From NCBI RefSeq assembly GCF_044324785.1, contig NZ_CP172127.1: a DNA stretch of 64,000 nt; one strand, given 5' to 3'. The position numbers were made by a program, and so were the translations under genes. This DNA comes from Escherichia coli (lineage in GTDB: Bacteria > Pseudomonadota > Gammaproteobacteria > Enterobacterales > Enterobacteriaceae). Within the stretch, counting starts at the first letter, position 1. Each line of letters begins with the position of its first letter. The notes below the pieces were generated by a model. The model made no database searches, was not told the origin of the DNA, and saw only the letters and a list, made by a program, of their open reading frames with translations. This document shows, piece by piece, positions 31,442 to 31,924 of the stretch.

Positions 31442-31924
31442 AATAAATCCTTCTGACAAATATAAAGAACGCCAGAATTCATAAAGATCATTGAAATCAA
31501 CAACCCTTACAAATATCTGACTGTAAAATATTCAAAAAATATATGATAAGCATTCTATATTGTCAGCAGTACATTATTCAACCTATTTTGTTGATGTTTC
31601 CTAAATATAGATGCGGTGAATGTATAACAACATAAAAACAATATTTATATATGATTAAAAATCTTCTCAAGACAATAATAATTTCGATGTTAAATTCGCA
31701 CAGAGAATATTATTAATGTTGATTATTTGTTGGGGTTATTTATTTGATGAGCAGCAATTCACTAGAGTTGCAAACGCCTCTCTTGTAAGACATTCATCTT
31801 TTCTCAGGAATGCCGATGTAATCGGTGTGCTCCTTTGCAGCAACACGCTGCTCTATGATCTTGTTAACTAATACCCTATTTTTCACCGACTACTACCAAA
31901 TGGTGTTTGAACTACCGTTGCATG

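Follow-up and report, generated by a model that had tools for sequence, protein, structure and literature searches.

A mosaic block of apparent clade II ancestry joins ydbL to ydbA in place of the fea/tynA/paa cluster in Escherichia coli

In E. coli K-12, the chromosomal region between ydbL and ydbA is occupied by the catabolic fea/tynA/paa cluster. In strain DH1 the order is ydbL-feaR-feaB-tynA-paaZ-paaA to paaK-paaX-paaY, followed by a 21-aa ORF and ydbA, just as an earlier note on the DNA studied here had stated. Its size was understated there, as the K-12-specific stretch between the homology break-points measures 19.15 kb (positions 20170-39324 of the K-12 locus L002) and not about 16 kb. 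The ydbA gene of DH1 is broken by IS2 and IS30. The region has been described as heterogeneous between ydbH-ynbE-ydbL and ynbC/D, with several independent deletions (PMC4951805), and tynA is often absent: PCR surveys detected it in 38% of isolates from faeces, in 7% of UPEC and in no O157:H7 (0%) (PMC4640556). Two further descriptions bear on the genes at its edges. A role for YdbL as a modulator of the YdbH-YnbE lipid bridge has been reported (PMC11126948; 2026 bioRxiv preprint), and the intergenic region between paaY and ydbA of K-12 is one of 78 "promoter islands", bound by H-NS according to the data of Kahramanoglou and of Oshima (Panyukov and Ozoline, 2013, PMC3661553).

How does the locus look in an E. 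coli genome that joins ydbL directly to ydbA? The DNA analysed here is a 64-kb stretch of an E. coli chromosome (the window), which has a short spacer at the position that the catabolic cluster takes in K-12, between ydbH-ynbE-ydbL on one side and ydbA and pdxI on the other. The start of ydbA at 31441 and the end of ydbL at 31925, as read in the earlier note, are the same in the RefSeq annotation of E. coli N3, whose sequence is identical to the window over the ydbL-ydbA stretch; the ATG at 31441 lies within a minus-strand ORF spanning 23774-31459. The features of the locus are the following:

23774-31441, minus strand: ydbA, an intact gene for a BigA/YdbA-type autotransporter of 2555 aa (ORF list, translation, Pfam BigA_N and BigA_beta)
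31442-31924, unstranded: the ydbL-ydbA spacer, 483 bp at 31.7% GC
31439-31776, unstranded: the AT-rich core, toward the ydbA end of the spacer, holding all 200-bp intervals of the 64 kb with a GC content of 27% or less
31442-31476, minus strand: the leader-side segment, the last 35 bp before the ATG of ydbA (from BLAST of the spacer against the loci)
31925-32248, minus strand: ydbL, 107 aa, DUF1318 (Pfam), a divergent allele with its start at 32248 or 32251 and its stop codon ending at 31925
32256-32441 and 32438-35077, minus strand: ynbE and ydbH, the E. coli-type right flank, 98-100% identical to K-12 per 100-bp bin and 87% to clade II

The spacer is the most AT-rich stretch of the window, which has an overall GC content of 48.8%; only 0.1% of all 483-bp intervals in the 64 kb are equally poor in GC, every one of them overlapping the spacer, and the lowest value for any 200 bp (23%) is reached from position 31524 onward, in the core. 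The strong AT bias noted earlier is thus real, while the accompanying description of a spacer full of A/T tracts holds only in part, runs of at least four A or T occurring at 1.45 per 100 bp against 1.2 in the window as a whole.

No fea, tynA or paa gene lies between ydbL and ydbA, which are separated by the 483 bp only, and the 64-kb window shows no alignment to the K-12 fea/tynA/paa stretch (L002 20170-39324), in keeping with the earlier proposal of a strain that lacks the island. The spacer occurs in just two of 5,426 complete E. coli genomes, N3 and 19KM1831, whereas the farther right flank (33000-37000) is found in 5,417 of the 5,426. A chimeric probe made of 809 nt of spacer and ydbL plus 500 nt each of K-12 paaK, paaC and tynA ranks these two genomes at the top, with one matching place each, the spacer itself; DNA resembling paaK, paaC or tynA was not found at blastn sensitivity in these chromosomes, which are what the search covered. 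Absence of the cluster is common in E. coli and hence unremarkable, because about 39% of complete genomes match none of the three catabolic probes (2,124 of the 5,411 with any match, these 2,124 being matched through ydbL only, at 60-80% identity). This share is in line with both the PCR surveys (PMC4640556) and the description of a heterogeneous locus (PMC4951805).

What sets the window apart is the ancestry of the DNA around the empty position. From ynbE outward the window is 98-100% identical to K-12; inside ydbL the figure drops to 58-83%, and the spacer shows no homology. The sliding identity to clade II gives the reverse profile: ydbH, ldhA and nifJ are at about 88-90%, whereas ydbL, the spacer and the beginning of ydbA reach 93-98%. 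The flanks are 97-100% identical to E. coli; their closest relative is Br_167 (99.6% over the flank), which has the full fea/paa cluster. Positions that differ between clade II and the paa-positive Br_167 were used as informative sites. Clade II was represented by L010 at the 5' end of ydbA and by L037, a complete locus, in the 3' part of that gene as well as in ydbL and the right flank. Read from right to left along the window, these sites switch twice and delimit a recombinant block:

31100-32256, unstranded: the mosaic block of about 1.15 kb, comprising ydbL, the spacer and the first 330 bp or so of ydbA
32253-32259, unstranded: the right crossover interval, located at the stop codon of ynbE and the short stretch that separates it from the start of ydbL (alignment and informative sites)
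31094-31121, unstranded: the left crossover interval, some 320-350 bp inside ydbA (string of informative sites)
34050 down to 32259 (ydbH, ynbE): sites almost all of E. coli type, the last of them at 32259
32253 down to 31925 (ydbL): sites almost all of clade II type, the first of them at 32253
31480 down to 31124 (spacer edge and 5' end of ydbA): 71 sites of clade II type and 2 of E. coli type
Below 31094 (ydbA): sites of E. coli type again
27900 down to 23600 (the 3' 4.3 kb of ydbA): 937 sites of E. coli type and 31 of clade II type

The same junctions are present in independent assemblies (two complete RefSeq genomes and the loci L013-L020 from NCBI, ENA and Logan), all of which have this ydbL allele, the 483-bp spacer and ydbA, and the YdbL protein is found in 645 blocks of the indexed collection. 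Because the junctions recur in this way, they are not an assembly artefact. On these alignments, the block is of different ancestry from the rest of the window and follows the haplotype of clade II, the group of E4742. The carriers were also considered as members of cryptic clade I, which was rejected on the grounds that many ordinary E. coli match their flanks at 99% identity; the paper describing clade I (PMC10100065) holds nothing on the ydbL-ydbA locus.

The E4742 group consists of cryptic clade II Escherichia isolated from sediment in Hong Kong (PMC7716201). The spacer is colinear and 94-95% identical in the clade II contigs L010, L011 and L012. The cluster of YdbL alleles to which the window belongs is carried by all listed Hong Kong clade II isolates, including the "Escherichia sp." strains E4742, E4930, E4694, E2748 and others, and by a minority of E. 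coli assemblies, where this spacer of 483 bp and then ydbA invariably come next. In E4742 itself (L009, 10325-10885) the first 26 bp of the spacer are kept and followed by pdxI, ydbA being deleted; the locus is therefore unstable in clade II too. Genomes labelled E. whittamii (the P0020 allele; L034/L035) are only 90-91% identical in ydbH to the Hong Kong clade II strains (L010/L037), and their ydbL alleles and downstream gene content also differ. This may reflect heterogeneity of "clade II" at the locus or recombination of ydbH itself.

Across the wider genus, two arrangements without the catabolic genes are seen. In E. albertii, a P0004-type lineage and clade II, ydbL adjoins ydbA over an AT-rich spacer of 395-486 bp with neither fea nor paa, and in E. 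marmotae, E. whittamii-type genomes, E4742 and Citrobacter it adjoins pdxI. Among the lineages examined outside E. coli, none has fea/paa at this site. The junction sequence is absent from the GTDB species representatives in two scans (exact 30-mer and 24-mer), which gave no further carrier or donor species.

The ydbL allele is unusual in its own right. At the nucleotide level the window's copy shares 98% identity with the Hong Kong clade II strains, and all other Escherichia alleles match it at 66-73% (K-12 at 68%), a distance similar to that of the Citrobacter gene; the proteins of the window and K-12 are 61% identical. Among 5.8 billion proteins, nothing comes closer to this YdbL than its own cluster and one match at 93%. 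Comparison of Escherichia loci (L002, L004, L022, L024, L027, L034, L037) shows ydbL to be far more divergent than the neighbouring ydbH. The K-12-type ydbL is 74-77% identical to the alleles of E. albertii, E. marmotae and E. whittamii, while ydbH tracks the species tree at 83-92%, and it may be that the K-12-type allele arrived together with the fea/paa insertion.

Diversity within the block and outside it was compared for the window, clade II and the E. coli carriers:

Window against clade II L010: 96.6% identity in the block, 87.6% in the flank
Window against clade II L037: 92.8% in the block, 87.2% in the flank
L010 against L037, within clade II: 94.3% in the block, 97.9% in the flank (differences of 5.7% and 2.1%)
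E. coli carriers among themselves: 99.4-100% in the block, 98.4-99.8% in the flank (flank differences of up to 1.6%)

High diversity of the block in clade II, together with near invariance over several E. coli backgrounds, suggests, as far as sequence comparison goes, that E. coli received it once and fairly recently from a clade II-like reservoir, after which it spread. The sampled clade II alleles of the block still lie 3.4-7% from the window, the nearest at 3.4%, and the true donor is therefore outside the sampled strains.

We thus consider it probable that a clade II-type patch was imported by recombination, most likely removing the catabolic cluster, and that the spacer is the regulatory region of ydbA. 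An E. coli ancestor would have recombined with DNA of a clade II-like donor in which ydbL adjoined ydbA, the crossovers falling at the conserved junction of ynbE with ydbL and within the 5' part of ydbA. The short donor allele would have replaced the resident one, so that the intervening DNA, most likely the 19-kb feaR-feaB-tynA-paa stretch, was lost in one step, a replacement that would leave no fea/paa remnant. The nearly invariant block would later have spread into several E. coli backgrounds. Alternatively, the recipient may already have been without fea/paa, in which case the patch itself did not delete the cluster.

As in known imports between Escherichia lineages, the switches are sharp at both ends, the crossovers lie in conserved sequence beside a divergent core, and the length is about 1 kb. 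Unlike them, the donor type is a cryptic clade with about 12.5% flank divergence, unusually distant for a successful short import, and the incoming ydbL shares only about 68% identity with the allele that it replaced. In contrast to the deletion variants of the K-12 region, the change here is an allelic replacement, in which ydbL and the 5' end of ydbA were also exchanged for the clade II type. The process, recombination between lineages, is well known, and this is a specific new instance of it. On this reading, a catabolic island can vanish when a short segment is imported from a distant relative that has never carried it, and presence/absence scoring alone would log such a scarless loss as an ordinary deletion. 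General principles are unchanged by this; what is refined is the annotation and the history of one variable locus.

The same mosaic could have come about with a different donor history, either by transfer from E. coli to clade II or by acquisition in both from an unsampled third lineage. Pairwise identities have no direction and fit either course, and such a history would agree with an allele that is an outlier in the whole genus, with the lack of closer relatives in the protein search and with the absence of the junction from all GTDB species representatives. We regard this as distinctly unlikely, as the block varies by 5.7% in clade II against ≤0.7% in E. coli, with the flanks showing the opposite, and the allele cluster is in every listed Hong Kong clade II isolate against two of the 5,426 complete E. 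coli genomes.

A vertically retained empty site would require a lineage that never received the island and kept the ydbL-ydbA arrangement of the genus. The island-free neighbours described above (ydbL-ydbA in E. albertii, clade II and the P0004 type, ydbL-pdxI in Citrobacter and E. marmotae) make the island-free site probably the older state in the genus. Descent of this kind predicts, however, that block and flanks have similar distances from clade II (about 12.5%), and the block is found at 3.4-7%; nor does it fit the change of ancestry within 7 bp at the ynbE/ydbL junction, the occurrence of a nearly invariant block in several different E. coli flank haplotypes, or a ydbL allele as remote from other Escherichia alleles as that of Citrobacter. 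Vertical retention is accordingly quite improbable.

A separate question is whether the spacer encodes a product of its own (a small RNA or a small protein) or is the remnant of a mobile element. A 51-aa ORF (31716-31871, plus strand) is called in some assemblies, and the segments 31494-31515 and 31724-31745 form an imperfect inverted repeat of 22 nt. The ORF was rejected as a coding sequence on account of a 1-bp indel that frameshifts it in clade II, and the repeats were rejected as the ends of a MITE, the sequence being single-copy in the carrier genomes. The spacer has no match to any Rfam family at E values up to 1, and is absent from plasmid and phage collections by BLAST. A product or mobile origin is very improbable on this evidence.

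Strains that have lost the cluster by other routes keep traces of it. In S12 a fragment of paaY is joined to a fragment of feaR; in Ecol_316, which has also lost ydbA, fragments of feaR and paaX remain with an intact paaY; and strains of the E. coli C type show a feaR…paaB/paaC junction. BLAST of the spacer against the K-12 locus found no truncated feaR, paaX or paaY and no K-12-type intergenic DNA except the 35 bp before ydbA. Simple deletion of fea/tynA/paa within the E. coli lineage, with the spacer as its leftover, was the mechanism implied in the earlier note and is hardly credible: the cluster is indeed missing and independent deletions are common at this position (PMC4951805), but no remnant is left, 448 of the 483 bp are without homology to any K-12 sequence at the locus, and the spacer belongs to a 1.15-kb recombinant block with clade II as its nearest relative, so that the genes flanking it also switch ancestry at sharp points, beyond what a deletion produces.

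By position and by analogy, the spacer would be the regulatory region of ydbA, containing promoter, leader and the end of the ydbL transcript. The only part of it that aligns by BLAST with the sequence upstream of ydbA in K-12 and B2-type strains is 31442-31476, at 88-93% identity, presumably the ribosome-binding or leader segment of the gene. The promoter or promoters would lie in the ydbA-proximal 340 bp, at 23-27% GC. One candidate can be named there:

31538-31566, minus strand: the best sigma-70-like site facing ydbA, a candidate promoter (CTGACA, 17 nt, TATATT; 10 of 12 matches)

This candidate lies about 97 nt upstream of the ydbA ATG, and both hexamers are conserved in the clade II alignment. 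A scan for terminator-like sites found none for ydbL in the spacer.

The regions upstream of ydbA are at 25-32% GC in all examined haplotypes, with or without the island (K-12, B2-like, E. albertii, P0004 type and the window), and share by BLAST no homology other than the last 35 bp or so. Because all haplotypes fall in this range, AT-richness is a general trait of the ydbA control region and not an effect of the missing island. The K-12 promoter island has the same position relative to ydbA and a similarly extreme AT content, with 330-385 bp at 25% GC compared with 483 bp at 32% and a core of 23% here, while the two are non-homologous save for the last 35 bp, the H-NS data being those of the K-12 haplotype. 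Coating and silencing by H-NS is, by this analogy, probably the most likely mode of ydbA regulation in the carriers, and ydbA would then be poorly expressed under laboratory conditions, as has been reported for the K-12 region. H-NS occupancy and derepression in an hns mutant are published for the paaY/ydbA region of K-12 (PMC3661553). The xenogeneically silenced promoter proposed in the earlier note is plausible in so far as the block is of foreign origin in E. coli and strongly AT-rich. The spacer differs from the definition of a promoter island in having no excess of promoter-like sites by a scan simpler than PlatProm, the method that defines these islands (5 sites, against 3.4 ± 1.9 in dinucleotide-preserving shuffles). 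The H-NS high-affinity motif TCGATAAATT has no match in the spacer with up to two mismatches, 1.4 being expected from shuffles. The high-affinity motif is not required for H-NS binding.

At least three classes of ydbL allele coexist in the genus at 66-77% nucleotide identity to each other, compared with 83-98% for ydbH, and each class has its own non-homologous AT-rich control region before ydbA. It is conceivable, if unlikely, that ydbL, the ydbA promoter and the 5' part of ydbA form a cassette that passes between Escherichia species and whose polymorphism is maintained by selection. Selection would then act on YdbL, as the periplasmic modulator of the YdbH-YnbE lipid bridge, or on expression of the BigA-type autotransporter, and whether a strain has the phenylacetate island would follow, by hitch-hiking, from the cassette that it carries. 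Whatever its history, the block offers a natural experiment in which a YdbL 61% identical to the K-12 protein is found in E. coli alongside YnbE and YdbH of E. coli type. The carriers are also useful for the regulation of the autotransporter, as an intact ydbA, a pseudogene in K-12, has here gained a different AT-rich control region.

The ydbA gene contains a long repeat downstream of the block:

27902-30781, minus strand: tandem repeat in ydbA, 9.8 copies of 294 bp (98 aa), from Tandem Repeats Finder

YdbA ranges from 1673 to 2555 aa among the loci L013-L020, all of which have the same upstream block, and the repeat number is therefore highly variable between strains. The repeat also breaks short-read assemblies.

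Two further differences from K-12 are seen elsewhere in the window. The Rac prophage (about 23 kb between ttcA and ynaM/uspF in K-12) is absent, the K-12 alignments abutting with a 43-bp overlap at 43125-43167. The second most AT-rich stretch (9610-10749, about 33% GC) is an insertion relative to K-12 between ydcF and hrpA, with two small ORFs on the plus strand (9927-10421 and 10406-10717); at the ydcF-hrpA position of Ecol_316, an SMI1/KNR4-family protein and a hypothetical protein are annotated. Finally, several RefSeq E. coli genomes (e.g., NZ_CP107120.1, L004 2738-12136) name a YdbA of about 3000 aa "EntS/YbdA MFS transporter", a label that looks like a mix-up of the names ydbA and ybdA in automatic annotation.
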